Positions 6,670 to 61,850 of a DNA stretch of 63,142 bases are shown piece after piece; positions within the stretch are counted from its first letter, which is position 1, and each line of letters opens with the position of its first letter. The translations under genes were made by a program, and so were the position numbers. Location: NCBI GenBank assembly GCA_041310335.1, contig JBFYXW010000027.1, positions 1 through 63,142 on the forward strand. The letters are read 5' to 3'. The notes below the pieces were generated by a model. That model was not told the DNA's origin and made no database searches. It saw only the letters and a program-made list of their open reading frames with translations. This DNA is from Syntrophaceae bacterium. Lineage in GTDB: Bacteria > Desulfobacterota > Syntrophia > Syntrophales > PHBD01.

Positions 6670-6846
6670 TCATTCCTCGCCGGTTTCCTTCTTCTTCCTG
6701 TGGGCCCGGACAGCGATAAAGACGTACACACCCACGGCCGCCCCCAGCGAGATGATCAGGTTCACCAGCCCGCTTTCAATCCCGATGACCCGCTCGCAGA
6801 GGAGCCAGACCACCAGGTAGGTGACGGCTGTCAAGATCTCCTGCAT
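6670..6846 (-). CDS. Small (58 aa) two-helix membrane protein, function unknown
   Basis: MQEILTAVTYLVVWLLCERVIGIESGLVNLIISLGAAVGVYVFIAVRAHRKKKETGEE. It has two hydrophobic segments and a basic tail, with GGGAGG 12 nt upstream of ATG 6846. In-frame upstream starts at 6891 or further are possible. Confidence 0.5.
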   Translation of the reverse strand: MQEILTAVTYLVVWLLCERVIGIESGLVNLIISLGAAVGVYVFIAVRAHRKKKETGEE

Positions 6847-7108: not shown

Positions 7109-7137
7109 CAAAAGCAAATCCGACCCGTTTGCGAGGG

Positions 7138-8670
7138 TCATCGCCGGACCCAGGCCAGCCTCGCCCGGCCGAGGGCCCGGCCGAAGCAGGCCACGGCGTT
7201 CGGCAGGGGGGAGACGGGGTCGCGCCGGAAGAGGTAGATCCGCTCCACGCCGAGACGCTCCGCCTCCTCCGCCACGAGCCGGTGCGCCTCCGCGGGGCCG
7301 TCGGCGGGAATGTACAGGTGGACGGGCAGGCCGAGCCGGCTCACCGCCAGGACTCGGCCCAGGGCCCGCCCGAGCCCTTCCGGGGCCCCGGCGCCCCGCC
7401 CCCCGTCGCCCGGGGAGGGAAAGGGCAGCATCAGCCGGAGGGCCCGAACGGGAAAGGAGCGCAGCCGCTCCCGGAAATCCGGGGCATCCGGGAGCCGACG
7501 GCCCGTCGTCCACAGGACGATCCCCATCCACGGGGGCACGCGGCGGAGGACCTCCGGTAGATCCGCCCGGAGGAGGGCGTCCCCCCCGAAGAACTCGATG
7601 CTCCGGTAATTCGGGTCCACCGCCAGGAGATCGCGGATCACCGCGGAAGCGGGCCTCCCGGCCGGCCTCCGGGCCGCGTCGCACCCGGAACACCCGTCCG
7701 GGCACGGGGCCCCCAGGTCCACCTGGTTCGTCACGGCGATGGGGTAGAAGGGGCGGCCGGCCCCCAGCGGCTTGATGTGCTCCTCGATGTATTCGGGGTT
7801 CCGCATGGGACAGGTGTCGCCGCCCAGGCGGACCAGCGGGTGGGCCTGCATGCGCTCGAAGACCTCCACGACGGACTCCCGCGTGGCGTCGCCGAAGACG
7901 AGCGGCAGGTACGGGCAGGGGGTGATCCAGCCGTTGCTCATGACGTGGCAGAAGATGTTCTTGGCGGTACACTTGTTCGTCTCCCCCGGCGGCGTCCCCG
8001 GCGTGTGCACGTAGACGAAGGAGTCGTACCGGGGGTCGACGGAGCGGAAGAGGTCCCGCTCATGGCGGGCGGCGAAGGGGAGCCCGTCTGGGCTGGCCGC
8101 ACGGCCGGAGAACCGGGGCAAGAGCAGACGCACCTTGTCCGCCCCCCTCCCCAGGACGAAGGCCAGGAACCGGTTCATGTCGCCGCCGGTGAAGAACTCG
8201 GTCGTCTCGGGCACCACGGAGACGTGGACGGCCAGGGAGGTCGCGGCGGCCCGCTCCAGTGCACCCACGGCCCGCTCGAAACTCCCCGCCCGTCCGCGCC
8301 GCCGGTCGTGCTCCCCGGCCCGGTAGTCGTCGATGCTCAGGTAGACCTGGTCGAGGCCTGCCGCTTCCAGCCGCCGGACGAAGGTCTCGTCCAGGAGCCA
8401 GCCATTGGTCTCCAGGGACATCACGAACCCGTGGGCTTTCCCGCGGCGGATGATCTCGAAGAGGTCTTTCCGCAGGGTCGGCTCGCCGCCGAAGAGGTCC
8501 ACCACCAGGCAGCCCGCCAGCCGGAGGTCCCGGAAGAGGTCGTCGATCCGCTCCAGCGGGAGCTCTTCCGGCATGACGGTCCGCAGGTCCGCCACCCCGC
8601 AGTGCTCGCAGTTGAGCATGCACCGGTTGGTGAGGGTGAGCTGGACGACCTTGACGAGGGGCAGGGCCAT
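7138..8670 (-). CDS. Radical SAM enzyme with twitch/SPASM-like Cys region and a C-terminal second CX3CX2C + GGD module
   Basis: ATG 8670 (MALPLVKVVQLTLTNRCMLNCEHCGV); the track ORF to 9384 is an extension overlapping the upstream gene. Motifs: CMLNCEHC, DLFGGEPTLR, then KCTAKNIFCHVMSNGWITPC...GGDTCP. A second set follows: CPDGCSGC then IEFFGGDALLR. Confidence 0.85.
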   Translation of the reverse strand: MALPLVKVVQLTLTNRCMLNCEHCGVADLRTVMPEELPLERIDDLFRDLRLAGCLVVDLFGGEPTLRKDLFEIIRRGKAHGFVMSLETNGWLLDETFVRRLEAAGLDQVYLSIDDYRAGEHDRRRGRAGSFERAVGALERAAATSLAVHVSVVPETTEFFTGGDMNRFLAFVLGRGADKVRLLLPRFSGRAASPDGLPFAARHERDLFRSVDPRYDSFVYVHTPGTPPGETNKCTAKNIFCHVMSNGWITPCPYLPLVFGDATRESVVEVFERMQAHPLVRLGGDTCPMRNPEYIEEHIKPLGAGRPFYPIAVTNQVDLGAPCPDGCSGCDAARRPAGRPASAVIRDLLAVDPNYRSIEFFGGDALLRADLPEVLRRVPPWMGIVLWTTGRRLPDAPDFRERLRSFPVRALRLMLPFPSPGDGGRGAGAPEGLGRALGRVLAVSRLGLPVHLYIPADGPAEAHRLVAEEAERLGVERIYLFRRDPVSPLPNAVACFGRALGRARLAWVRR

Positions 8671-8717
8671 GCTATGCGCCTCGATTGCGGGCCGCAGGGA
8701 CAGTGGGGAGAGCGGGA

Positions 8718-9830
8718 TCAGGCATGGGACACCACGAAGGAGGCGAGTTTGCCCTCCTCCACCAGCCGCTCCAGGCGTTCCGCCTTCGCCTGCCGGTCCT
8801 CCTCGCCAAAGCGGGGTGTCAGGACCGCCGCCCGGGTCACCCGGTTCTCCCCGTAGCCGATGAAGACGGAGTGATCGAAACGGCGGGCGAAGGAAACGCT
8901 CGCCGCGAACTCCTCCTCCGTCTCCGTGGGGAAGGCAAAGATGAAGTGGGTGTAGACAAAAACGCCGGGATCGAGGGCCCGGAGCCGCAAAACCGCCTCC
9001 GCCAGTTCCCCGGGGTCGTACCGCCGGTTCATCAGCCCCAGGATCCGCGGGGAAGCGGACTGGACGGGCAGGCAGACGTAGGGAATGCGCCGCGCCGCGA
9101 AAAACGGCTCCAGGCGCTCCGCATACCTGAGGAACAGGGCCGGGAAAACGGTGTAGAGCTTGACCCGGAGGTCCGGGGCGACGTCGCAGATCCGGCCGAC
9201 CAGCTCCGGCAGGTCCGTCCCCCGGTCCAGGCCCCAGGAGCCGCAGTCGTCCGCCAGGAGGGTCACGGTCCGGACTCCCTGACCATAGAGGGTGCGGGCC
9301 TGGTTCTCGATCTCCCCCGCGGGCCTGCTCCGGACGCTCCCCTTGGCCAGCCGGATGCTGCAGTAGCTGCAGTCGTTGACGCACCCCTGGGCAATGAGGA
9401 GGTAGTGGTCTTCGGGCCCCATGCGGGGCTGGTAGGGGCGGTGCCCGTCGAGGCGGGAGATGTGGACGGCCTCGAAGGGGACACGGGCCCCGACGAGGGC
9501 GTCCAGCTCAACGCTCGCCCGGTAGGGGATGAACCGGATCCACCCGGCATCGGAGCCGAGGGACACCCGCAGGTCTTCCGGAAAGGCCGCCAGGCAGCCG
9601 AAGACGACGAAGCTCGCCCGGGGATGGCGGCGCAGGCCCTCCGCAACGGCGGCCTCGCAGCGCCGGCGCATCTGGTCGGTGACGACGCAGGCGCCCACGA
9701 GGACCAGGTCCGCCTCCCCGGCGTCCCCGACGACCCGGTGGCCGTTCAGCTCGAAATACCGCCGGGCCCGGGAGAGGAACAGGGCGTTGTTCTCGCAGCC
9801 CCGGTGGAGGTTCTCGATGCGGACGTTCAT
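8718..9830 (-). CDS. MiaB/RimO-family (methylthiotransferase-like) radical SAM enzyme lacking a recognisable TRAM domain
   Basis: Likely start is ATG 9830 (MNVRIENLHRGCENN); the track start at 9875 is TTG. The three N-terminal Cys expected for the UPF0004 domain are present (GCENN, GACVVT, FGCLA). The radical-SAM motif is QGCVNDCSYC. The protein ends about 60 aa after the barrel. Confidence 0.85.
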   Translation of the reverse strand: MNVRIENLHRGCENNALFLSRARRYFELNGHRVVGDAGEADLVLVGACVVTDQMRRRCEAAVAEGLRRHPRASFVVFGCLAAFPEDLRVSLGSDAGWIRFIPYRASVELDALVGARVPFEAVHISRLDGHRPYQPRMGPEDHYLLIAQGCVNDCSYCSIRLAKGSVRSRPAGEIENQARTLYGQGVRTVTLLADDCGSWGLDRGTDLPELVGRICDVAPDLRVKLYTVFPALFLRYAERLEPFFAARRIPYVCLPVQSASPRILGLMNRRYDPGELAEAVLRLRALDPGVFVYTHFIFAFPTETEEEFAASVSFARRFDHSVFIGYGENRVTRAAVLTPRFGEEDRQAKAERLERLVEEGKLASFVVSHA

Positions 9831-9841
9831 GGATTCACCGA

Positions 9842-9888
9842 AAACAGGTCCGTTTTTTTGGGCAGTGCCGAACAAATCGGACCTGTTT
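9842..9888 (-). terminator. Intercistronic 11-bp stem-loop (possible attenuator/processing site) between the ACAD and the radical-SAM pair
   Basis: AAACAGGTCCG (9842-9852) and CGGACCTGTTT (9878-9888) are exact reverse complements, with a 25-nt loop. On the minus strand the 3' arm runs into UUUUCGG, immediately before the GGTGA SD of the next gene. Confidence 0.3.
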
Positions 9889-9894
9889 CTCCTT

Positions 9895-11037
9895 TCACAC
9901 CCCCGTCATCCGGGCGATGATGCCCTTCATGATCTCGTTGGTGCCGGCGAGGATGCGGGTGACCCGGAGGTCCCGCCAGGTCCGGGCCATCGGGCCGTCC
10001 TCGTCGAGGCCCAGCCGGCCGTGGAGCTGGAGGCAGCGGTCGGCGACCCGCCAGGCCGTCTCGGTGGTCCACCACTTGGCCATGGAGACCTCCGGGACGA
10101 CGTTTTTCCCCTCCATGTGGTCGGCGATGAGCTTGTCCACGAAGGTCCGGCCGATTCTTGCCTCCGTTGCCAGTTCGGCCAGTTCGAACCGGACGTGCTG
10201 GAACGACGACAGGGGTGAACCGGCAATGTCCGTCGCTTTCACGTGGGCCAGGGTCCGTTCCAGGACCCACTCCGCCGCGGAGACGGCGCCGATGGCCACG
10301 ACGAGGCGCTCCGGCTGGAGGTGCTTCATCAGGTTCTTGAATCCGGAACCCTTCCCACCGAGGCGGTGGGTCCGGGGCACCCGGCAGTCGCGGAAGAAGA
10401 TCTCCGTCGTGTCCTGGCTGTGCCAGCCAGCCTTCTTCAACCGGCGGCCCCGCTCGAAGCCGGCGGTCTTCCCTTCCACCAGGTAGATATCCACGGCCCG
10501 ATGGGGATCCGCCGTCGCCGGGTCCTTCGCGGCCACCACGAACAGGTCGCCGTTGGTGCCGTTGGAGATGAAGGTCTTCTGGCCGTTCAGGACGAAGGCA
10601 TCGCCATCCTCCACGGCGCTCGTCCGGATGGCCGCCACGTCGCTCCCGGCGTGGGGCTCCGTCATGGCGATGCCCGTGACGATCTCTCCGGCGATGCAGC
10701 CCGGTAGATAACGGTGCTTCAGCTCCTCCGAGCCGAAGGACGTGATGTAGGGGACGACGACGTTGCTGTGGAGACGGGGCGAGAGGCCATAGAAATTCGT
10801 TTTCGCCATCTCGTCGACGACGATGACGGAATAGAGAAAGTCGAGGCCCCGGCCGCCGTAGTCCCGGGGCACATCGGTGCAGAGAAACCCCGCCGCGCCC
10901 ATCGTCAGCCAGGCCGACCGGGGAACGATGCCGTCGGCCTCCCACCGGTCCACGAAGGGGATGACCTCTTTCGCCAGGAACCGCCGGAATTCCTCCCGGA
11001 AGGCCCTGTGATCGTTCGTCCAGGGAAGGATCTCCAT
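9895..11037 (-). CDS. Acyl-CoA dehydrogenase
   Basis: MEILPWTNDHRAFREEFRRF...TEPHAGSDVAA...ILAGTNEIMKGIIARMTGV. ATGA overlap with the upstream ligase stop (11035-11039). Paralog of the genes at 24922 and 60708. Confidence 0.9.
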   Translation of the reverse strand: MEILPWTNDHRAFREEFRRFLAKEVIPFVDRWEADGIVPRSAWLTMGAAGFLCTDVPRDYGGRGLDFLYSVIVVDEMAKTNFYGLSPRLHSNVVVPYITSFGSEELKHRYLPGCIAGEIVTGIAMTEPHAGSDVAAIRTSAVEDGDAFVLNGQKTFISNGTNGDLFVVAAKDPATADPHRAVDIYLVEGKTAGFERGRRLKKAGWHSQDTTEIFFRDCRVPRTHRLGGKGSGFKNLMKHLQPERLVVAIGAVSAAEWVLERTLAHVKATDIAGSPLSSFQHVRFELAELATEARIGRTFVDKLIADHMEGKNVVPEVSMAKWWTTETAWRVADRCLQLHGRLGLDEDGPMARTWRDLRVTRILAGTNEIMKGIIARMTGV

Positions 11038-12560
11038 CACGCCTCCCGGAGGCGCTTCTGGAGGATGCGCTTGAGGATCTTCCCGCCGGGGTTCCTGGGG
11101 AAGGAGTCGACGAAGAAGATCCGCCGGGGCATCTTGAAGGGAGCGATCTTCCCCTGGAGGCCCGCCAGGATCTCCTCCTCCGTCACGACCTCGCCCTCCT
11201 TGAGCAGGACAAAGGCCGCCACCACCTCGCCCCGCTTCGGGTCCGGCATGCCCACGGCCGCGGCCTCCTTCACCGCCCGGAGCGACTGGATCGCCCGCTC
11301 CACCTCGGCGGGGTAGATGTTCTCCCCCGAGGAGATGATCATCTCCACCTTGCGGCCGATGATGTGGAGGAACCCGTCTTCGTCGCGCCGTCCCATGTCG
11401 CCCGTCCGGAACCACCCGCCCCGCTTGGCTTCCGCGGTCTCCTTCGGCTTCCGCCAGTAGCCGGAAAACACGTTGGGGCCCTTCACCACGATCTCCCCGG
11501 GCTCCCCGGGGGCCACGTCCCGGTCCTGCTCGTCGACGATGCGGAGCCGCACGTGGAAGACCTCCTTGCCCACGGACCCGGCCTTGCGGACGGCGTCCTC
11601 CAGGTCCAGGGACGTGAGGCGCCCCGTCTCCGTGAGGGCGTAGCCCTGGACGAAGCCGACCCCCTTCTCGTCCTGGTACTTCCGGATGACCGGCAGCGGG
11701 ATCGGCGCCCCGCCGGAGATGAAGAAGTGGACGTGGGACAGGTCCGCCCCGGGCCACTCGGGCGTCTCCGTCATCAACTGGAACATGACGGGAACGGCGA
11801 ACAGGTAGTTGATCCGTTCCCGGACGACGGTCGAGAGGACCTCCGAGGCGCTGAAGAAGCCCGACAGGACCACGGACCCGCCGGCGTAGATCACCGGCGT
11901 GACCGACGCCGCCAGGGCCCCGATGTGGAAGAGGGGCGCCACCACGAGGGACCGGTAGGTCCGGTTGACGCCGTAGCCAATCAGCGAGTGGATGGCCCCG
12001 AAGAGGATGTTCCCGTGGGTCAGGACGGCCCCCTTGGGGTCCCCCGTGGTCCCGGAGGTGTACATGATGAACAGGGGGTCCTCGTCCGTCACCTCCTCCA
12101 CCGGCGAGGGCTCTCCCTCCGGCTCCGCCGCCGTCAGGTCCGCCAGGAGCGACTCGCCCGCCGGGGCCTCGCCGCCGTGGCGGATCCAGTGGCGGATCCC
12201 CAGGCCCAGGTCCTTCAGCGGCGCCGTCTTCTCGGCGAACTCGGCGGCGTAGACGAGTCCCCGGGGGGCCGAGTCGCGGAGGATGTACTCGATCTCCGGC
12301 GCCGCCAGGCGGTAGTTCACCGGCACCAGGATGGCCCCTGTCTTGGCGCAGGCGAAGAAGATCTCCAGGAATTCGCTCGTGTTTCCCATCACGAGGGCCA
12401 GGCGCTCCCCCTTCACGATGTCCAGGTGCTGCAGCGCCCGGGCCGTCCGGTTGACACGCCCGTTGAAGGCCCGGTTGCTGAAGACCCGATCCCCGTCCTT
12501 CAGGATTTCCCGGTCTGGGTGGGTGAAGGCCCTCTTTGCAATCCATTCTCCGACGTTCAT
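11037..12560 (-). CDS. AMP-dependent acyl-CoA synthetase/ligase
   Basis: ATG 12560 (MNVGEWIAKRAF) in ATGA overlap with the upstream stop. Motifs: MYTSGTTGDPKG (A3), GYALTETG, TGDMGRRDEDGFLHIIGR, C-terminal GKILKR. Confidence 0.9.
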   Translation of the reverse strand: MNVGEWIAKRAFTHPDREILKDGDRVFSNRAFNGRVNRTARALQHLDIVKGERLALVMGNTSEFLEIFFACAKTGAILVPVNYRLAAPEIEYILRDSAPRGLVYAAEFAEKTAPLKDLGLGIRHWIRHGGEAPAGESLLADLTAAEPEGEPSPVEEVTDEDPLFIMYTSGTTGDPKGAVLTHGNILFGAIHSLIGYGVNRTYRSLVVAPLFHIGALAASVTPVIYAGGSVVLSGFFSASEVLSTVVRERINYLFAVPVMFQLMTETPEWPGADLSHVHFFISGGAPIPLPVIRKYQDEKGVGFVQGYALTETGRLTSLDLEDAVRKAGSVGKEVFHVRLRIVDEQDRDVAPGEPGEIVVKGPNVFSGYWRKPKETAEAKRGGWFRTGDMGRRDEDGFLHIIGRKVEMIISSGENIYPAEVERAIQSLRAVKEAAAVGMPDPKRGEVVAAFVLLKEGEVVTEEEILAGLQGKIAPFKMPRRIFFVDSFPRNPGGKILKRILQKRLREA

Positions 12561-13828
12561 GATTCTGCCCCAATGTTTGAAAATACAAGGGACACATACG
12601 TCCCCCCGTGGGAGATGCCGCTGAGGAGCCCCTGCCGGAGGTTTGCCCGGGCGGCCTGCCCCGTCACAAAGGCCAGGGGCCGGACCGGCTCTTCCAGGCC
12701 CAGGGTGGGCGGGACGGCACCGTCCCGGAGGGCCAGGGCCAGGGCCGCCGCCCGGAGGCCCCCGGAGGTGAAGCTCTCCCCGAGGGCGCCCTTCAGGGCC
12801 GATACGAGGGGCCGTTCCGCTGAAAGACCGAAAACCATCTCCAGCCCCTCGGCTTCCAGGAGGTCCGGCTGGATCCCGCCGTTGGCCGCCGCAAAGACGA
12901 CGTCCACGTCTTCCGGGGCGGAACCGGCAGACCGGAGGGCCCGGCGGACCGCCAGGACGAAGCCCCGGGGATCCCCCGGCCAGCCGGTCATGGGGGCCGG
13001 CGAGGAGGCCAGGCCCTCGCCGGCGATTTCCGCGTATATCGTTGTCCCCCGCTCCCGGGCGGCCTCCAGGGGCTCCAGGCAAAGGATGCCGCAGCCCTCC
13101 CCGGCGACGGGGCCGTTCCGCAGGAGGTCGAAGGGGCGGGCCCCCTCGGGACCGCCTCCCTGGAGAGGCGACAGGGCCCGGAAGCGGACCAGGGACTCAA
13201 AGTAGAAAGGCGCCAGGACGTCGGCCCCGCCGGCGAGGATCGCCTCCGCGGCGCCCCGGCGGACCTCCTGGGCCCCGAAGGCCAGGGCCGACTCCGCCGA
13301 GATGCCGTAGTGGTTGACCGTCGTGTTGATCCCCCGGAACCCAAGCTCGATGGAGGCGTGCCCCGCCGGGGCGTTCATGACCACATTGGGCACCAGGATG
13401 GGATTCGCCGCCCCCGGACCCTCCGTGACGAGGACCCGGGCGAAGGAGACCGTCACGTCGGTCCCGCCCCAGGCCGTCCCCAGGATCATGCCCAGGCGGT
13501 CCCGGTTCGCCGGCGTGACGCAGAGCCCCGCATCGTCCAGGGCCATCCGGGCCGCCGCCGTCGCCACGGCGGAGAGGCGGTCCATCCGCCGCAGGTTCTT
13601 GATCGAGACGAAGTCCTTCGGCCGGAAATCCCGGATTTCCGCAGCCAGCCGACAGGGCAGCGCCTCCGGGGAGAACGCCCCGAGCGGGGCGATTCCCGAT
13701 TCCCCGGCGAAGAGGGCCCTGCCGAAGGCCTCGCGGCCGCAGCCGAGGGGGGAAACGACGCCGATGCCCGTCACGGCGACTCTCCGGTCCATCCCGTTCG
13801 GCCTGTCCGGCCGGTCCGACCTATCCAT
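12557..13828 (-). CDS. Ketosynthase-fold protein lacking the Cys-His-His triad (chain-length-factor-like KS partner)
   Basis: RRVAVTGIGVVSPLG KS N-terminus. By hand alignment to the neighbouring KS, TACSSG aligns to HYGISA (Gly at the Cys position). CDSHHMT aligns to SSPAPMT, and NAHGTAT aligns to AAANGGI. The start may be 13828 or the internal ATG at 13792. Confidence 0.8.
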   Translation of the reverse strand: MDRSDRPDRPNGMDRRVAVTGIGVVSPLGCGREAFGRALFAGESGIAPLGAFSPEALPCRLAAEIRDFRPKDFVSIKNLRRMDRLSAVATAAARMALDDAGLCVTPANRDRLGMILGTAWGGTDVTVSFARVLVTEGPGAANPILVPNVVMNAPAGHASIELGFRGINTTVNHYGISAESALAFGAQEVRRGAAEAILAGGADVLAPFYFESLVRFRALSPLQGGGPEGARPFDLLRNGPVAGEGCGILCLEPLEAARERGTTIYAEIAGEGLASSPAPMTGWPGDPRGFVLAVRRALRSAGSAPEDVDVVFAAANGGIQPDLLEAEGLEMVFGLSAERPLVSALKGALGESFTSGGLRAAALALALRDGAVPPTLGLEEPVRPLAFVTGQAARANLRQGLLSGISHGGTYVSLVFSNIGAES

Positions 13829-15068
13829 TCCGCCCGCGCCCCCCTTCTGCGAACCTCCCGAAGACGAGAGACGTGTTGTTCCCCCCGAAGGCGAAGGAGT
13901 TGGACAGGACCACCGCGAGGTCCGCCTCCCGGGCCCCCTCCGTGACGTAGTCGAGGTCGCACTCCGGGTCCGGCACGGTGCAGTGAATCGTCGGGGGAAC
14001 GAACCGGTGGTGGATCGCCAGGACCGACGCGACCGCTTCGAGGGCCCCCGAGGCGCCCAGGGTGTGGCCCGTCATGGACTTCGTGGAACTGACGGGGATC
14101 CGCCCGGCCCGGTCGCCGAAAACGTTCCGGATCGCCCGGCTCTCCATGACGTCGTTGGGCGGCGTGGCGGTGCCGTGGGCATTGATGTAGTCGACCTGCT
14201 CCGGGGAAACCCCCGCGTCGCGGAGGGCCTCCCGCATCGAGCGGGCCGCTCCGGAGGCCTCCGGGTCGGGGGCCGTCATGTGGTGGGAGTCACAGGTGAC
14301 GCCGTAGCCCAGGACCTCGGCGTAGATGTGCGCCCCCCGTGCCCGGGCGTGGGCAAGGGATTCGAGGATCAGCATGCCCGCCGCCTCGCCGAGGGAGAGG
14401 CCCGCCCTGTTTCCCGCAAAGGGCTTGCAGGGCGACGGGTCCACCGCCTGGAGGGCGTTGAAGGCGGCGTAGGTGATGCGGCAGAGGGGCTCCGTCCCGC
14501 CGGCGATGACGATGGGGGCGGCCCCGCTCCGGATGAGGTCCCGGGCGTAGCCGACGGCGGTGGCTCCGGAGGAGCAGGCCGTCATGAAGGTCGTCTTGGG
14601 GCCCCAGAGCCCCAGCAGGGAGGCGATCCGGTCCGCCGAGGAGGCGCAGTAGACCGCCGACAGGGCGGAGAAGCGGGCCAGCCGGCCCCGGGTGCGCAAG
14701 TAGTCTCCGAAGAACCGCTCCCCCTCCAAGAGCCCCCCCCCGCCGCCGCCGATGACGACGCCCGTCTGCTCCGCCAGTGACGGAGGCAGCGGGTCCAGCC
14801 CCGCGTCCCGCAGCGCTTCCAGGGCCGCGGCAAATCCCAGGAGGTCCGCCCGGGACATGCGCTTCAGGGGGTATGAGGGGGGGATGTGGTCCCGGGGGTC
14901 GAAATCCTTCACCTCCGCGGCGACGTGCGTCCGGAACTCCGAGGCGTCGAAGACGGAGAAGGGCCCGATCCCGCAGCGTCCCTCCCGCAGGGCCAGCGCG
15001 AAGGTCCGGGCGCTCTTCGCAATCCCGTTGAGGGTTCCCAGTCCGGTGACGACGACCCGTTCCATCAT
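13821..15068 (-). CDS. Beta-ketoacyl synthase (FabF/KAS II-like) with intact catalytic triad
   Basis: MMERVVVTGLGT..., FMTACSSGATAVG (Cys), CDSHHMTAP (His), YINAHGTATPPND (His), SFAFGGNNTSLVF. The start abuts the murI stop (15068/15069). Confidence 0.9.
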   Translation of the reverse strand: MMERVVVTGLGTLNGIAKSARTFALALREGRCGIGPFSVFDASEFRTHVAAEVKDFDPRDHIPPSYPLKRMSRADLLGFAAALEALRDAGLDPLPPSLAEQTGVVIGGGGGGLLEGERFFGDYLRTRGRLARFSALSAVYCASSADRIASLLGLWGPKTTFMTACSSGATAVGYARDLIRSGAAPIVIAGGTEPLCRITYAAFNALQAVDPSPCKPFAGNRAGLSLGEAAGMLILESLAHARARGAHIYAEVLGYGVTCDSHHMTAPDPEASGAARSMREALRDAGVSPEQVDYINAHGTATPPNDVMESRAIRNVFGDRAGRIPVSSTKSMTGHTLGASGALEAVASVLAIHHRFVPPTIHCTVPDPECDLDYVTEGAREADLAVVLSNSFAFGGNNTSLVFGRFAEGGRGRNG

Positions 15069-15875
15069 TCAGAGTTTCACCAGCTCGACGTGGGCGATCG
15101 TCCGGCCGAGGAACCGCTCGGCCATGGTCTGGAAACGGAAGGGTACATCGGATACGTAGCAGGAATAGGACGGTTTCTCCCGGAGGGAGTTCCACAGGTG
15201 CAGTTCCGTCAGGAGGTTCGCCGCGACTTCCGCCATGGCCTCCCCCGAATCCACCAGGCGCACCTGGGGACCGGCGATCTTCTCCAGGAGGGGCTTCAGG
15301 AGCGGATAGTGGGTGCACCCCAGGACCAGGGTGTCCACATGCTCCGCCAGGACGGGCTTCAGGTATTCGTTCGCCGTCAGCCTCGTCACCGGGTGATCCA
15401 GCCAGCCCTCCTCCACGAGGGGCACGAAGAGCGGGCAGGCCTGGGAAAAGATGCGGGCCGCCGGATCCAGGGTGTGGATGGCCCGGGCGTAGGCATTGCT
15501 GTTCACGGTGGCGGGGGTGCCGATGACCCCGATGTGGCGGGAGCGGGTTTCGCGGACGGCGGACTTGGCGCCGGCTTCAATGACGTCCAGGACCGGCACG
15601 GGTGAGCGGCTGCGAACGGCCTCGCCGGCCACGGCGGCGACGGTGTTGCAGGCGATGATGACCACCTTGACCCCCTTCTTGAGAAGAAAATCCGTGATCT
15701 CAATGGCATACTGGGTCACCGTCTCGACGGACTTGACGCCGTAGGGCACCCGGGCCGTATCCCCGAAATAGACGATGTTCTCGAAGGGAAGCCGCTCCAT
15801 GAGGGCCCGGACCACCGTGAGCCCCCCCACGCCGGAGTCGAAGACGCCGATGGGCTGCTTTGCCATGTCTCCCAT
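15069..15875 (-). CDS. murI: Glutamate racemase
   Basis: PIGVFDSGVGGLTV, VIIACNTVAA (first Cys), LVLGCTHYPLL (second Cys). The layout is typical MurI. Confidence 0.95.
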   Translation of the reverse strand: MGDMAKQPIGVFDSGVGGLTVVRALMERLPFENIVYFGDTARVPYGVKSVETVTQYAIEITDFLLKKGVKVVIIACNTVAAVAGEAVRSRSPVPVLDVIEAGAKSAVRETRSRHIGVIGTPATVNSNAYARAIHTLDPAARIFSQACPLFVPLVEEGWLDHPVTRLTANEYLKPVLAEHVDTLVLGCTHYPLLKPLLEKIAGPQVRLVDSGEAMAEVAANLLTELHLWNSLREKPSYSCYVSDVPFRFQTMAERFLGRTIAHVELVKL

Positions 15876-15930: not shown

Positions 15931-17103
15931 TCAAACGCCCCGGTCGGGCTTCCGGCTGCCCCCGTAGAGCTCATACACGAGGAGGCGGCTCTCGATGTCC
16001 CCGTTCCAAAAGGGGATTCTCCGGCTCGTGCGGAGGCCGATCCGCTTGGCCAGGGCGAGGTTCCCGGTAAAGACGGCGCCCGCGTAGCCCTGGCAGGACT
16101 TCTTCAGGAAGTCCCCGATGCGGCTGTACAGGTCCTCCAGGACGGCCTCCTCCCCCAGGCGCTCCCCGTAGGGCGGGTTGAACACCACGAGCCCTCCCCC
16201 GGGGGGAACCTCCGTTCTCATGAAGTCGCCGGCGGAAAGGGAGATGTGCTCCTCCACCCCGGCCCGCCTCGCGTTCTGGCGGGCCGCCGCCACGGCCTCC
16301 CGGTCAATGTCGGTGGCGATGATCCGACCGGAAAAACTTCGCTTCGCTTCCTTCCGCGCCCGGCGGAGGAGGGCGTCCCACTCCTTCTCCGGAAAGCCCC
16401 GGATCGACATGAATCCGAAATGCTCCCGGAGGAGACCGGGGGCCCGGTTCAGGGCCATCAGGGCCCCCTCGACGGCCAGGGTGCCGCTGCCGCACATGGG
16501 GTTGACCAGGTTCCCCTCCCCCTTCCAGCCGGCGGCCATCAGGACCCCCGCTGCCAGGGTCTCCTGCATGGGCGCCGCCATGGGGATTTTCCGGTAGCCC
16601 CGCCGGGAGAGGGGCTCCCCGGAGGTGTGGAGGAAGACCTCCGCCCGACTGCCCTGCCAGTGAACGTGCACGACGGCCCCGGTGCGCTCGGGCCCCGAGT
16701 CGGGGCGGCGGCCCAGGCGGGCGGCCATGCGGTCCACGATGGCGTCCTTCGCCTTCAGGTTCACGAACCGGGAGTCGTTGATGGTGGGGTGGTTGACCGT
16801 GCAGGTCACCGTGAGGTAGCCGTCCTCGTGGAGGTACTCCTCCCAGGGCAGGTCCGTGATCCCTCCGTAGAGGCTGCCGGGGCCGTCGGCCGGGAGGGTC
16901 TTCAGGTGGTAGAGGACCCGGTGGGCCGTCCGGAGGCGGAGGTTCAGGCGCAGGGTGTCGGCGAGGGATCCCTCCGTTTCCACGGCCGTCTCCGTCTCGC
17001 CGCGGACGGGGAAACCCAGTCCGTTCACTTCGGCCAGGAGAAGGGGGACCATGCCCCGGGCGCAGGTGAGGACGATGCGGCGTGATTCCTTCCAGGGGTT
17101 CAT
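15931..17103 (-). CDS. THUMP-domain class I SAM-dependent RNA methyltransferase (RlmL/COG0116-like)
   Basis: ATG 17103 follows GGAGGG. MNPWKESRRIVLTCARGMV..., NPMCGSGTLAVEG SAM motif, VFNPPYGERL (NPPY). Confidence 0.85.
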   Translation of the reverse strand: MNPWKESRRIVLTCARGMVPLLLAEVNGLGFPVRGETETAVETEGSLADTLRLNLRLRTAHRVLYHLKTLPADGPGSLYGGITDLPWEEYLHEDGYLTVTCTVNHPTINDSRFVNLKAKDAIVDRMAARLGRRPDSGPERTGAVVHVHWQGSRAEVFLHTSGEPLSRRGYRKIPMAAPMQETLAAGVLMAAGWKGEGNLVNPMCGSGTLAVEGALMALNRAPGLLREHFGFMSIRGFPEKEWDALLRRARKEAKRSFSGRIIATDIDREAVAAARQNARRAGVEEHISLSAGDFMRTEVPPGGGLVVFNPPYGERLGEEAVLEDLYSRIGDFLKKSCQGYAGAVFTGNLALAKRIGLRTSRRIPFWNGDIESRLLVYELYGGSRKPDRGV

Positions 17104-17266
17104 GGTTTCCCTCCTATCACAACTCCCGGAAAAGGCAAAGCAAACCACGGCTTGCCGGGCCGCCGGGGACATATTTCCCCTTTCCATCGGGTCCCTCATC
17201 ATGTATAAGCAGGCCTTGTTTCAACACCTTGGCCGCTCCGGCGGCAGAACGGGAGGGAAAGAACCG

Positions 17267-24921: not shown

Positions 24922-26064
24922 CTAGATTCCCATGAAGCGGGCGATGATCACCTTCATGATCTCGTTGGTGCCGGCGAAGATCCGGGCCGCCCGGCTGTCC
25001 CGCCAGGCCCTCGAGATCGGATACTCGTCGCAGTAGCCGTACCCTCCGTGAAGCTGGAGGCACCGGTCGGCCACCTGGAAGGCCATATCCGTCGTCCAGT
25101 ACTTGGCCATGGAGGTCTCGATGACCACGTTCCGGCCCTCCATGTGGTCCGCCACGAGCTTGTCCACGAAGGTCCGGCCGATCTTGATCTCCGTGGCCAT
25201 CTCCACCAGGGTGAACTGGTTCACCTGGAATTTCGAGACCGGCTTCCCGAAAACGGTCCGCTCCCGGCAGTACCGGAGAGTGATGTCGAGCATGTACTCG
25301 GCCCCCGCGACGGCGACGACGGCGCAGACGAGGCGCTCCTGCTGGAGTTTCTGCATCAGCTTCAAAAATCCCGTGCCCTTTTCGCCCAGCCGGTTGGCCT
25401 TGGGGATCCGGCAGTCCGTGAAGTACAGCTCCGCCGTGTCCTGGCTGTGACAGCCCGCCTTCTGGATCCGCCGGCCCTTTTCGAAGCCCGGCGTGCCCGC
25501 CTCCACGAGGTAGAGATCCACGGCCTCGTGGGCCTTCTGCACGGACGGGTCCCGGGCGGCCAGGACGCAGAGGTCGCAGTTGATGCCGCTGGAGATGAAG
25601 GTCTTCTGGCCGTTCAGGACGATGGTGTCGCCGTTCTCCAGGGCCGTCGTTTTCATGGCCGCCAGGTCGCTGCCGGCATTGGGCTCCGTCATGGCCACCG
25701 CCGTGACGATGTCGCCGCTGACGCAGCCGGGGAGGTACTTCTGCTTTTGCTCCTCCGCGGCGAAGGAAACGACGTAGGGGACGACGATGTCGCTGTGGAG
25801 CCACGTGGAAAAACTGGAGAGGTTCGCCCGGGCCAGCTCCTCGATGACGATGACGGAGTACAGGAAATCCGCCCCGGGGCCGCCATATTCTTCGGGAACC
25901 GACATCCCCAGGAACCCCTGCCGCCCCATCCTCCTCCAGACGTCCCTGGGCACGATGCCCGCTTCTTCCCACGCCTCGCTTTGAGGGGCCAGCTCGTTTG
26001 CCACGAACCGGCGCATGGTTTCACGATAGATCTTGTGTTCTTCCGTATAGTTGAGAATGTCCAC
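24922..26064 (-). CDS. Acyl-CoA dehydrogenase (paralog of 60708-61850)
   Basis: Likely GTG start at 26064, 6 nt after GGAGG (VDILNYTEEHKIYRETMRRF), by homology with MEILHYSEEHRIFRDTLRKF of the paralog. MTEPNAGSD, IFAGTNEIMK. Confidence 0.9.
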   Translation of the reverse strand: MDILNYTEEHKIYRETMRRFVANELAPQSEAWEEAGIVPRDVWRRMGRQGFLGMSVPEEYGGPGADFLYSVIVIEELARANLSSFSTWLHSDIVVPYVVSFAAEEQKQKYLPGCVSGDIVTAVAMTEPNAGSDLAAMKTTALENGDTIVLNGQKTFISSGINCDLCVLAARDPSVQKAHEAVDLYLVEAGTPGFEKGRRIQKAGCHSQDTAELYFTDCRIPKANRLGEKGTGFLKLMQKLQQERLVCAVVAVAGAEYMLDITLRYCRERTVFGKPVSKFQVNQFTLVEMATEIKIGRTFVDKLVADHMEGRNVVIETSMAKYWTTDMAFQVADRCLQLHGGYGYCDEYPISRAWRDSRAARIFAGTNEIMKVIIARFMGI

Positions 26065-60707: not shown

Positions 60708-61850
60708 CTACAGGCCCATGAACCTGGCGATGATGGTCTTCATGATCTCGTTGGTCCCGGCAAAGATCCGGGTGATGCGGATGTCCCGCCAGGCCCGGGA
60801 GATCTCGTACTCGTCGCAGTAACCGTATCCGCCGTGAAGCTGGAGGCAGCGGTCGGCGACCCGGTTGGCCATGTCGGTGACCCAGTACTTGGCCATGGAG
60901 GTCTCGATAATGATCTGCCGCCCCTCCATGTGGTCCGCCACCAGCTTGTCCACGAAGGTCCGTCCCAGTTTGATTTCCGTCGCCATCTCGACGAGGGAGA
61001 ACTGGTTGACCTGGAACTTGGAGACCGGCTTCCCGAAGACCGTCCGCTCCCGGCAGTACCGGAGGGTGATCTCCAGCATGTACTCCGCGGCGGCGACGGC
61101 GCCGATGGCCAGGACCAGGCGCTCCTGCTGGAGCTTCAGCATCAGCTTTAAAAAGCCCGTGCCTTTCTCCCCCAGCCGGCTGCCCGCCGGAATCCGGCAG
61201 TCCGTGAAGTACAGCTCCGCCGTGTCCTGGCTGTGCCAGCCGGCCTTCTTGATGTTCCGGCCCTTCTCGAACCCGGGCGCGCCGGCCTCCACGAGGAACA
61301 GGTCGACGGCCTTATGGGGGTCTGTCTCCCGGGGGTCCTTGGCGGCCACGACGCAGAGGTCGCAGACGATTCCGTTGGAGATGAAGGTCTTCTGGCCGTT
61401 GAGGACGAAGCCGTCCCCGTTTTCCGCGGCCGTCGTCTTCATGGCCGCCAGGTCGCTCCCGGCGCCCGGCTCCGTCATGGCCACCGCGGTGATGATGTCG
61501 CCAGTGACGCATCCGGGCAGGTATTTCTGCTTCTGCTCCTCGGAACCGAAGGAGAGAATGTAGGGTACGATGATGTCGCTGTGCAGGGAGGCGGTGAGGC
61601 CCGAGAAGTTCGCCCGGGCCATCTCCTCGTTCACGATGACGGAGTACAGGAAGTCCGCCCCGGGCCCGCCGTACTCTTCGGGAACCGACGTCCCCAGGAA
61701 GCCCTGCTGGCCCATCTTCTGCCAGGCGCTCTTGGGCACGAGGCCCGCCTCTTCCCACTCCTCGACGTGGGGGATCAGTTCATTGGCCACGAACTTCCGC
61801 AGCGTGTCGCGGAAGATTCGGTGTTCTTCGGAATAATGGAGTATTTCCAT
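60708..61850 (-). CDS. Acyl-CoA dehydrogenase (paralog of 24922-26064)
   Basis: MEILHYSEEHRIFRDTLRKF, MTEPGAGSD, IFAGTNEIMKTIIARFMGL. GAGGAG SD. Confidence 0.9.
   Translation of the reverse strand: MEILHYSEEHRIFRDTLRKFVANELIPHVEEWEEAGLVPKSAWQKMGQQGFLGTSVPEEYGGPGADFLYSVIVNEEMARANFSGLTASLHSDIIVPYILSFGSEEQKQKYLPGCVTGDIITAVAMTEPGAGSDLAAMKTTAAENGDGFVLNGQKTFISNGIVCDLCVVAAKDPRETDPHKAVDLFLVEAGAPGFEKGRNIKKAGWHSQDTAELYFTDCRIPAGSRLGEKGTGFLKLMLKLQQERLVLAIGAVAAAEYMLEITLRYCRERTVFGKPVSKFQVNQFSLVEMATEIKLGRTFVDKLVADHMEGRQIIIETSMAKYWVTDMANRVADRCLQLHGGYGYCDEYEISRAWRDIRITRIFAGTNEIMKTIIARFMGL

Follow-up and report, generated by a model that had tools for sequence, protein, structure and literature searches.

Results

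The window, that is, the whole 63-kb stretch of Syntrophaceae DNA analysed here (63,142 nt), carries on its minus strand six ORFs, all of them where a preliminary description of the sequence had placed them: the ketosynthase-type genes KSa (13821-15068, 415 aa) and KSb (12557-13828, 423 aa, or 411 aa if the start lies at 13792), a predicted ANL ligase gene (11037-12560, 507 aa), an ACAD gene (9895-11037, 380 aa) and two radical-SAM genes, rS1 (8718-9830, 370 aa) and rS3 (7138-8670, 510 aa). On the same strand lies the glutamate racemase gene murI (15069-15875), whose TGA stop codon (15069-15071) stands directly against the ATG of KSa (junction CTCTGAATGATG). This abutment recurs in the close relatives L001, L003, L016 and L017, and in the Syntrophus loci (L013, L014) a divergent OmpH-like gene occupies the place of murI upstream of the KSa module; murI is a lineage-specific neighbour, outside the pathway. 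The KSa and KSb reading frames share 8 nt when the KSb start is placed at 13828; this start is ambiguous with 13792, the position favoured by the gene caller and the relatives. ATGA overlaps had been claimed at two junctions; that between KSb and the ligase (12557-12560) is indeed ATGA, but the ligase and ACAD genes share a TGATG with an overlap of 1 nt (11035-11039). The four genes from KSa to ACAD are translationally coupled, and in the window the coupling extends to murI.

ACAD and rS1 are separated by 64 nt (9831-9894), and this spacer contains, as previously described, a minus-strand hairpin with an 11-bp stem and a 25-nt loop, followed by TTTTCGG (9842-9888). Its predicted fold has an MFE of -24.6 kcal/mol (z = -2.9), equalled by 1 of 200 shuffled sequences. 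The hairpin is not conserved even in close relatives: it is degenerate in L001, is deleted in L003, and in L016 and L017 is replaced by a 2.2-kb AAA_21 and DUF4276 insertion located exactly between ACAD and rS1. The spacer marks the boundary between two modules, Module A, a conserved four-gene module (KSa-KSb-ligase-ACAD), and Module B, which comprises the radical-SAM genes. Directly 3' of the rS3 stop, a consensus scan alone called a terminator-like hairpin with a T-rich tail (7121-7140, minus strand), and the number of such sites that the scan found equals chance expectation. Further downstream, a minus-strand ORF for a 58-aa predicted membrane protein (6670-6846) has no Pfam match, is kept at 91-95% in L001 and L003 only and is absent beside the radical-SAM genes in other loci, so that its membership of either module is doubtful.

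Both KSa and KSb contain the N- and C-terminal ketoacyl-synt domains of Pfam. When aligned by MAFFT with E. coli FabF, KSa showed an intact Cys-His-His triad (C163/H303/H340) and the Phe400 gate. Of the motifs proposed earlier, NAHGT does hold H303, but the histidine of SHHMT is not a triad residue, and the second catalytic histidine, H340, sits in GHTLG. The same alignment gives Gly163/Ala303/Glu340 in KSb, with K335 retained, which bears out the claim that the partner lacks the triad; KSb is, as far as its sequence can tell, a FabF-derived, CLF-like inactive partner. In the PDB, KSa matches B. subtilis FabF (339 bits) and amxFabF2 of anammox bacteria (9s5h_B, 331 bits) best. The KSb family extends across Syntrophales and Desulfobacterales at 56-85% identity, and a neighbour-joining tree placed KSb and the anammox protein amxFabFmut (PDB 9s5h_C) in one cluster with 97% bootstrap (200 replicates). 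Both proteins have Lys335 and Glu340 in common; KSb scores 231 bits against canonical FabF and 216 bits against amxFabFmut, and long-branch attraction could lie behind the grouping. The pair amxFabF2/amxFabFmut is an obligate heterodimer that decarboxylates malonyl-ACP, and such a KS/inactive-KS heterodimer of the atypical FASII family has been characterized both biochemically and structurally (bioRxiv 10.64898/2026.05.19.726425).

The ligase contains the Pfam domains AMP-binding and AMP-binding_C, scores 460.3 against PRK06187 (cutoff 476) and matches 8weu/8wev (362 bits) and FadD13 (329 bits) in the PDB, which identifies it as an ANL-family ligase of the acyl-AMP/CoA type, FadD13-like or feruloyl-CoA-synthetase-like. 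The ligase at 11037-12560 is the copy travelling with the KS pair: it is 63-70% identical to the orthologues adjacent to KSa/KSb in L013, L014, L019 and L020, and 30-36% identical to the six other ligases of the window. The ACAD protein contains the N, M and C domains of its family, matches 2pg0 (418 bits) and LCAD (278 bits), is LCAD-like, and carries LAGTNEIM instead of YEGT. Its gene follows the ligase in L001, L003, L013, L014, L016 and L017, and belongs to a multi-copy paralogue family of the source genome, two other ACADs of the window being 58-61% identical to it. A member of this ACAD family adjoins an ApeP-like gene and an ACP gene in L020; this copy is 67% identical to the ACAD at 9895-11037 versus 69-70% to two paralogues elsewhere in the window (24925-26064 and 60711-61850), and the orthology is thus not clean. 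Both ligase and ACAD resemble ordinary CoA-type fatty-acid enzymes, of which the window contains many paralogues.

In agreement with its earlier assignment as a MiaB/RimO-type enzyme, rS1 contains UPF0004 and Radical_SAM domains, with Cys12/48/79 in the former and a radical-SAM CX3CX2C at 150-157; it has no TRAM domain and scores 172.9 against TIGR00089 (cutoff 251). Its relatives form a tight group of 360-375 aa at 53-84% identity, beyond which identity falls to 41%. Besides a Radical_SAM match, rS3 shows a sub-threshold SPASM match. Its N-terminal half carries a CX3CX2C (C17/21/24) and a GGE motif as well as the auxiliary cysteines Cys234/241/252/287, and its C-terminal half a second, invariant CX3CX2C (C323/327/330) and a GGD motif; compared by hhalign, the two halves match with 91.7% probability (E 7.6e-7). 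The protein is therefore a tandem radical-SAM protein whose C-terminal half is an internal duplicate, a half that has 25 representative relatives in all among 1.84 billion proteins. Between rS1 and rS3 the earlier reading had missed a remnant of a further gene, rS2 (8672-8725, minus strand), namely its first 14 nt (ATGCCTGATCCCGC), followed by a 17-codon stub ending 1 nt short of the rS3 ATG. A 388-aa rS2 occupies this position in all four close relatives (L001, L003, L016, L017); the module is normally a trio, and its middle gene has been deleted in the window. Module B is a rare, uncharacterised radical-SAM set: TRAM-less MiaB/RimO-type enzymes (rS1 and its paralogue rS2 share ~40% identity), each with cysteines for two [4Fe-4S] clusters, together with the tandem protein.

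Modules A and B are neighbours on the same strand in at least five related genomes (the window, L001, L003, L016 and L017) and part company elsewhere. The radical-SAM set occurs free of KS, ligase or ACAD genes in L002, L006, L007, L008, L010 and L011, and such KS-free modules were found in Syntrophales, Geobacter and Desulfatiglandaceae; no KS gene lies within reach of the trio in any of six informative loci. Conversely, the trio stands beside the KS module in none of four informative KS-module loci. Syntrophus gentianae (L014) and a 4.0-Mb genome (L013) carry KSa-KSb-ligase-ACAD without it, and the contig of the 4.0-Mb genome contributes no orthologue to the rS1 match list. In L019 and L020, orthologues of Module A (KSa 67-68%, KSb 58-60%, ligase 68-70%) lie inside ~20-kb clusters that encode two ACPs, an SDR ketoreductase, an ApeP-like dehydratase and a phytoene-desaturase-like oxidase, along with LolA, a B12-binding protein, a 4HBT thioesterase, Dak2/DegV, GT2, PlsC/LpxL-type acyltransferases and an MMPL-methyltransferase. 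Two sets of tblastn queries, E. coli AcpP, FabZ, FabG and FabD on the one hand and a related cluster's ACPs, KR, dehydratase, LolA and B12-binding protein on the other, gave no match in the 63-kb window, the part of the source genome that this search covered. The reported lack of an ACP, KR or dehydratase in the gene string thus extends to the entire window; such genes do not lie just outside the string, as had been considered, but in other genomes they belong to the same cluster.

Discussion

Our findings favour, with a probability of roughly 0.6, two separable modules that are adjacent in one uncultured Syntrophaceae lineage only, Module A representing a sub-cluster split off from the atypical type II FAS/PKS pathway of 'ladderane-like/aryl-polyene-like' kind in Thermodesulfobacteriota, and Module B being independent of it. 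The KS half is a member of the deltaproteobacterial/anammox atypical FASII cluster family, similar clusters having been reported in Deltaproteobacteria by Rattray et al. 2009 (PMC2649909). The preliminary statement that the gene set could not be matched to a described pathway hence applies to the radical-SAM half, but not to the KS half. Fragmentation of such clusters is real, since in the 4.0-Mb genome 2.9 Mb separates KSa-KSb-ligase-ACAD from the part with the B12-binding, 4HBT, Dak2-DegV and GT2 genes.

According to this two-module reading, KSa and the triad-less KSb might form a KS/chain-length-factor-like heterodimer that would decarboxylate malonyl-ACP and lengthen a chain carried on ACP; the part of KSb would be to shape the acyl tunnel. 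The FadD13-like ligase could turn a carboxylic acid, either a starter or a recycled one, into an acyl-AMP for transfer to CoA or to the ACP of the pathway, and the LCAD-like flavoenzyme might desaturate the thioester at the alpha,beta position or, in reverse, remove the double bond there. ACPs, KR, dehydratases, thioesterase, acyltransferases and the LolA/MMPL export components would be encoded elsewhere in the genome, and the product may be an acyl chain, modified and probably unsaturated, that is attached to a lipid of the envelope. Module B might act on a substrate other than RNA, plausible because rS1 lacks the RNA-binding TRAM domain, by inserting sulfur or methylthiolating it and by additional radical reactions, and this substrate is probably other than the product of Module A.

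The deletion scar of rS2, a gene retained in all four close relatives and in most distant loci, could alternatively mean that a three-enzyme system has been inactivated in the window and that rS1 and rS3 are becoming pseudogenes. We regard such decay as unlikely, although it is the alternative that survives best: both genes are full-length with every cluster cysteine intact, the Geobacter locus L011 likewise has rS3 and rS1 and no rS2 within 21 kb, and partial redundancy of rS1 and rS2 is possible given their paralogy.

Somewhat less probable still is that Module A serves as a housekeeping fatty-acid accessory, KSa/KSb being an alternative FabF that uses the AcpP of the genome, and ligase and ACAD acting in a CoA-dependent manner on exogenous or recycled fatty acids, for instance in 'backtracking' to unsaturated acids or in salvage. 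KSa passes the cutoff of the PRK07314 FabF subfamily (413.7 over 387) but fails that of the fabF equivalog (422.5 against 493.75). Housekeeping FabF is not known to depend on an obligate inactive partner. The affinities of the ligase to FadD13 and fatty-acyl-CoA synthetases and of ACAD to LCAD-type enzymes, the close ACAD paralogues and the absence of a dedicated ACP from the window would all fit this role, yet in L019 and L020 the orthologous KS pair and ligase belong to APE/ladderane-like clusters with ACPs of their own. Coupling to murI, a housekeeping gene, would fit this role as well, but the linkage is missing in Syntrophus.

The two-module reading also departs from the preliminary view of one coupled string, in which the ligase would activate an acid, KSa/KSb extend it, ACAD desaturate it and the radical-SAM enzymes add C-S or C-C bonds to yield, for example, a thio- or methylthio-lipid. 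In favour of this single pathway are the shared strand and the 64-nt spacer, the adjacency of the modules in the window, L001 and L003, the two-cluster architecture that the TRAM-less rS1 has in common with methylthiotransferases that insert sulfur, and the frequent presence of radical-SAM or B12 proteins in related FAS-like clusters (PMC2649909). It nevertheless appears the least probable of the readings, since the modules never co-occur outside one genus-level lineage and are split by an insertion in L016 and L017, the hairpin between them is not conserved, rS2 has been lost while Module A is intact, the radical-SAM or B12 proteins that FAS-like clusters have of their own are of another family, and elsewhere the trio keeps company with an O-methyltransferase, HxsC-like and B12 radical-SAM enzymes and DUF3467 proteins, and with no FAS genes. 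The synteny comparison suggested earlier thus found the modules adjoining in the four close relatives but separate in other loci; both may be co-transcribed in the window, because their adjacency, their shared strand and a short spacer recur in these relatives.

Organization of the gene string

The genes discussed here lie on the minus strand of a window with a G+C content of 67%, and the closest relatives of the region are uncultured Syntrophaceae/Syntrophales MAGs. An rlmL-like methyltransferase gene (15931–17202) and murI (15069–15875) are followed by KSa (13821–15068, 415 aa), a ketosynthase with the Cys-His-His triad, its triad-less partner KSb (12557–13828, 423 aa, or 411 aa when read from 13792), an ANL ligase (11037–12560, 507 aa) and an ACAD (9895–11037, 380 aa), the last four genes being designated here as Module A. 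After a 64-nt spacer (9831–9894) come the radical-SAM genes of Module B, rS1 (8718–9830, 370 aa) and rS3 (7138–8670, 510 aa), which are separated by a gap of 47 nt (8671–8717). This string had been noticed in a preliminary description of the sequence and was confirmed by our analysis, as was each of the domain assignments made there, according to both Pfam and NCBIfam. The junctions also appeared as described, except that between ligase and ACAD, which reads TGATG and not ATGA, and the hairpin reported in the spacer was recovered with its 11-bp stem (MFE −24.6 kcal/mol, z = −2.9). None of the proteins of the string reached an equivalog cutoff in NCBIfam, the sole cutoff passed being that of the FabF subfamily model PRK07314 by KSa, and exact-sequence look-ups of rS1 and KSa from the window returned no record. 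The lack of ACP, ketoreductase and dehydratase genes, reported in the same description for the surroundings of the string, extended by tblastn to the whole 63-kb window, where neither E. coli AcpP, FabZ, FabG and FabD nor the ACPs, ketoreductase, ApeP-like dehydratase, LolA, B12-binding protein, thioesterase and glycosyltransferase of a related cluster found any match. No dedicated ACP accompanies KSa and KSb within these 63 kb; ACP genes do adjoin their orthologues in L020, one of the more distant loci compared.

Two probable modules, adjacent in a single lineage

The string had been interpreted as one cassette (7138–15068) in which an acid would be activated, extended, desaturated and finally modified by radical chemistry, a proposal that synteny does not support. 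The comparison included 21 loci gathered in several ways, among them a metagenome scan with KSb that gave three loci, two of which were close relatives. A block formed by rlmL, murI, KSa, KSb, ligase and ACAD and, further along, the radical-SAM genes and a Zn-ADH is common to four close relatives (L001, Syntrophaceae GCA_013177825.1; L003, HGW-Deltaproteobacteria-19; L016 and L017, JGI contigs of 637 and 727 kb), with protein identities of 77–92%. All four encode a trio composed of rS1, a paralogous rS2 (388 aa) and rS3, whereas rS2 has been lost from the window, leaving a deletion scar (8672–8725, minus strand) in which the first 14 nt of the gene, identical to those of the relatives, run into a 17-codon stub ending 1 nt before the start of rS3. 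Furthermore, a 2.2-kb insertion encoding a 436-aa AAA_21/AAA_15 ATPase and a 207-aa DUF4276 protein, a pairing that presumably resembles phage-defence systems, is placed exactly between ACAD and rS1 in L016 (13981–15922) and in the equivalent stretch of L017. Only a degenerate form of the spacer hairpin exists in L001 and none in L003, L016 or L017, and the hairpin was consequently rejected as a regulatory element. The loss of rS2, the insertion between ACAD and rS1 and the unconserved hairpin all argue against one functional unit.

Beyond this lineage the two halves occur separately. Six loci have the trio, at identities of 53–64%, and neither a KS nor an orthologous ligase or ACAD within reach: L002 (a 2.4-Mb Syntrophales-like contig), L006, L007, L008, L010 (a Geobacteraceae MAG) and L011 (Geobacter sp. 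L1geo). Conversely, two loci, L014 from the cultured Syntrophus gentianae and L013 on a 4.0-Mb contig, have KSa, KSb, ligase and ACAD (61–68% identity) and lack the trio; the 4.0-Mb contig contributed no rS1 orthologue to the list of rS1 homologues. Among the loci examined, Modules A and B were never together outside the window lineage, and what links them is solely their adjacency in that lineage. The case exposes a limit of neighbourhood inference: a single pathway had been suggested by the close packing of same-strand genes in one genome, a suggestion undone once other genomes were compared. In the two Syntrophus loci, ACAD is followed by two small ORFs of 130 and ~150 aa (L013:14041–14869; L014:6728–7553), paralogous and ~29% identical to each other and devoid of Pfam matches; the window lineage lacks them and has the radical-SAM genes in their place.

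The radical-SAM module

Both rS1 and rS2 belong to the MiaB/RimO methylthiotransferase family and, as paralogues, are ~40% identical to each other. With MiaB, RimO and MtaB, rS1 and, in the relatives, rS2 share an N-terminal UPF0004 domain with three cysteines and the radical-SAM CX3CX2C motif, and the residues concerned (C12/C48/C79, of the UPF0004 auxiliary cluster, and C150/C154/C157) are invariant in both proteins. rS1 aligns over ~345 residues with the structures of MiaB and RimO and stops at residue 370, where the TRAM domain of MiaB would begin. Unlike MiaB, RimO and MtaB, rS1 lacks TRAM, scores below the family cutoff (172.9 against 251 for TIGR00089) and is encoded in an operon with several radical-SAM genes rather than beside translation genes; rS2 is likewise truncated before TRAM and falls short of that cutoff. 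The third member of the trio, rS3, carries at its N-terminus a radical-SAM domain that has a GGE motif, together with four more invariant cysteines (234/241/252/287); its SPASM match scored 16.7, below the Pfam threshold of 21.5. Its C-terminal half (residues 305–510) is an internal duplicate of the N-terminal one (hhalign 91.7%, E 7.6e-7), in which a second, invariant CX3CX2C and a GGD motif keep the register of the first half. This C-terminal domain is rare, with 25 representative relatives in 1.84 billion proteins, nearly all of them showing the same architecture of ~510–540 aa.

Outside Syntrophales, the trio belongs to a larger conserved operon of 8–9 genes, as in L007 (6950–16620) and also in L005, L009, L010 and L011. 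Beyond the trio, this operon encodes an HxsC-like and a B12-binding radical-SAM protein, a protein of 290 aa, another of 393 aa with DUF3467 at its N-terminus, and an O-methyltransferase, which in L007 is fused to DUF3467; no fatty-acid-synthesis genes are found among these non-Syntrophales companions. Assignment of rS1, rS2, rS3 and the accessory radical-SAM proteins to Tes, GeoRSP, HxsC, NirJ/AhbD, PqqE or TIGR04072 was rejected, no NCBIfam cutoff being reached. Neither NCBIfam nor the literature offered a family model or paper naming the rS1-rS2-rS3 system, and literature searches on DUF3467 and on TRAM-less methylthiotransferases in gene clusters returned nothing relevant.

The known substrates of the methylthiotransferase family are only tRNA and ribosomal protein S12 (PMC10702137). 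Module B might constitute a new and rare branch of that family, composed of the TRAM-less rS1/rS2 and the tandem rS3, which would introduce sulfur or a methylthio group into some other substrate, be it a small molecule, a lipid or a peptide; in the Syntrophaceae lineage of the window, the module could have been recruited beside a lipid-building ketosynthase module. We advance this reading tentatively, at a probability of about one in three; if true, it would be the first substrate class of the family different from tRNA and S12. Module B is the more novel of the two modules and, with its unusual tandem radical-SAM protein, a candidate for a new methylthiotransferase-type substrate class. Downstream of rS3, a 58-aa ORF with a hydrophobic core (6670–6846, minus strand) is 91–95% conserved in L001 and L003; it has no Pfam match and was not found beside the trio outside these two loci. 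As it occurs only in the closest relatives, a role as precursor peptide of the radical-SAM enzymes was rejected.

The ketosynthase pair

KSa and KSb are adjacent paralogous ketosynthase genes, overlapping or abutting, of which one product conserves an intact Cys-His-His. Aligned by MAFFT to E. coli FabF and solved structures, KSa retains C163, H303 (in NAHGT), K335, H340 (in GHTLG) and the F400 gate, while KSb shows G163, A303, K335, E340 and a histidine at 400. The alignment thus bears out the earlier claim that the partner had lost all three triad residues and corrects the placement of a triad histidine in the SHHMT motif, since the histidines of the triad are those of NAHGT and GHTLG. Loss of the triad was observed in every KSb orthologue examined, position 163 being Gly, Ala or Glu, position 303 Ala or Cys and position 340 Glu, and is conserved in L013, L015, L019 and L020. 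Neither protein reached the housekeeping FabF equivalog TIGR03150 (422.5 for KSa and 276.1 for KSb, against a cutoff of 493.75). KSb might possess a 12-residue N-terminal extension (13793–13828, minus strand), MDRSDRPDRPNG, containing a DRP repeat; the extended gene would overlap KSa by 8 nt, and the start chosen by the gene caller and used in most relatives is the following Met (13792). In L017 (9276–10516) the KSa orthologue aligns in two frames meeting at codon 245, either a frameshift or an assembly error.

Among the systems closest to KSa and KSb is the pair amxFabF2/amxFabFmut of the anammox 'Cluster I' (KustE3605/3606; PDB 9s5h/9s5i), whose members correspond to chains B and C of 9s5h, respectively. 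The triad positions of chain C are occupied by Val, Asn and Glu, in agreement with the published description. The two anammox proteins show activity only when paired in a heterodimer, which decarboxylates malonyl-ACP, and the inactive subunit affects chain-length preference (bioRxiv 10.64898/2026.05.19.726425). Both systems consist of adjoining FabF-derived paralogues, one with Cys-His-His and the other without it, and amxFabFmut and KSb have in common the retention of Lys335 and a Glu in place of His340. In a neighbour-joining tree with 200 replicates, the KSb family grouped with amxFabFmut with 97% bootstrap, both branches being long, and the grouping of KSa with amxFabF2 was not robust. KSa matched chain B with 331 bits and KSb matched chain C with 216 bits, compared with the 231 bits of KSb against canonical FabF. 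The gene order is opposite, with the active ketosynthase upstream here and the mutant one upstream in anammox bacteria, and the Cys position holds Gly, Ala or Glu in the KSb family instead of Val or Thr. The companions differ as well: amxACP, amxFabZ, the phytoene-dehydrogenase-like enzyme and the B12 radical-SAM protein (TIGR04072) are absent from the window, where a FadD-type ligase and an ACAD adjoin the pair. The related cluster of L020 does share ACPs, a phytoene-desaturase-like enzyme and a B12-binding protein with Cluster I; identification of the latter protein as TIGR04072 ('rSAM_ladder_B12') was rejected (46.6, cutoff 360). As a working model by analogy, KSa and KSb might function as an anammox-type heterodimer, that is, an obligate pair that would decarboxylate malonyl-ACP and in which KSb would influence chain length.

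Ladderanes are known only from anammox bacteria, while the host here is a member of the Syntrophaceae. Most work on pairs of the FabF/FabFmut type has to date concerned anammox bacteria, for which genetics is lacking. In Syntrophales such a pair, together with a dedicated ligase and an ACAD, constitutes a conserved portable module, a fact that argues against its being ladderane-specific, and its presence in the cultured Syntrophus gentianae provides a more tractable system.

Relationship of Module A to known clusters

L019 (a 704-kb contig) and L020 contain orthologues of KSa (67–68%), KSb (58–60%) and the ligase (68–70%) within clusters of ~20 kb. These clusters also encode two ACPs, an SDR ketoreductase, an ApeP-like hotdog protein, a CrtI-family-like amine oxidase, LolA, further ketosynthases (one of them passing PRK09116), a B12-binding protein, a 4HBT thioesterase, a Dak2/DegV fusion, a GT2, PlsC- and LpxL-type acyltransferases and an MMPL-methyltransferase; in L020 an ACAD gene additionally adjoins the ApeP-like gene and an ACP. 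Such a gene content is that of aryl-polyene (APE) clusters and of the atypical FASII clusters common to anammox bacteria and Deltaproteobacteria described by Rattray et al. 2009 (PMC2649909). The deltaproteobacterial 'ladderane-like' clusters, found in Desulfotalea psychrophila, Geobacter and Pelobacter, were proposed to yield polyunsaturated hydrocarbons (PMC2649909). They share with Module A divergent FabF paralogues without active-site residues, and with L019 and L020 the ACPs, a phytoene-dehydrogenase-like protein, SAM/B12 enzymes, a CoA ligase and a glycosyltransferase. On the other hand, the window holds just four genes of the set, the remainder being elsewhere or absent, and its ligase is FadD13-like instead of phenylacetyl-CoA-ligase-like. 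In the 4.0-Mb Syntrophus-like genome, the part of the cluster comprising the B12-binding, 4HBT, Dak2/DegV and GT2 genes is located at 3.27 Mb, distant from KSa-KSb-ligase-ACAD at 0.31–0.33 Mb, which indicates that the pathway is scattered in Syntrophaceae and would explain the 'ACP-less' string without need for ACP-independent chemistry. Module A is an additional member of a known family.

APE systems offer a further comparison, since ApeO-ApeC is a KS/CLF heterodimer (PMC8358021; PMC8253772), a ketosynthase with an inactive partner in a type II system, as proposed for Module A. Much of the APE set, namely an adenylating starter-loading enzyme, two ACPs, ApeP-type dehydratases, a ketoreductase, a thioesterase, LolA-like and MMPL export proteins, GT2 and acyltransferases, is likewise found around the orthologues in L019 and L020. 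In the window the ApeP-type dehydratase, LolA-like protein, GT2, acyltransferases, MMPL protein, ketoreductase and thioesterase are absent, L015 having part of them. KSa and KSb scored below PRK09185 (310.8, cutoff 407) and PRK06519 (41.2, cutoff 320), respectively, which we take to be models of APE-type ketosynthases, and no Ape-named ketosynthase chain occurred among the 60 best of the 71 PDB matches of KSb (E <= 1e-20). A canonical ape cluster is not known to include an ACAD and, in contrast to APE, no aryl starter is implied for Module A. A literature search for antiSMASH 'ladderane' or 'arylpolyene' calls in Syntrophales found nothing useful. The KS-alpha/CLF of type II aromatic PKS (actinorhodin, PDB 1tqy) equally combines an active ketosynthase with a triad-less, chain-length-setting paralogue, but its CLF has a Gln at the Cys position for decarboxylative priming, where KSb has Gly and its relatives Ala, Gly or Glu, and KSb is far closer to FabF (231 bits) than to Act CLF (133 bits).

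Ligase, ACAD and the neighbouring catabolic genes

Among PDB matches, the ligase is closest to feruloyl- and fatty-acyl-CoA synthetases and FadD13, and the six other ligases of the window are only 30–36% identical to the cluster ligase; the ligase is a specific companion of the ketosynthase pair. The ACAD, closest to Geobacillus ACAD and LCAD, belongs to a multi-copy family, and the copy in the L020 cluster is no closer to it than to two other copies in the window, for which reason a clean orthology with the L020 enzyme is unsupported and the role of ACAD is the least secure part of Module A. Away from the string, the region 21534–63122 is a dense CoA-dependent catabolic island, with six further ANL ligases, three further ACADs (two of them 58–61% identical to that of Module A), four enoyl-CoA hydratases and MaoC. 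The island also encodes two SCP-x-type thiolases with a DUF35/ChsH2-like partner, a family III CoA-transferase, BKACE, two NMO-family proteins, an OYE/dienoyl-CoA-reductase-like protein, and TetR and sigma-54 regulators.
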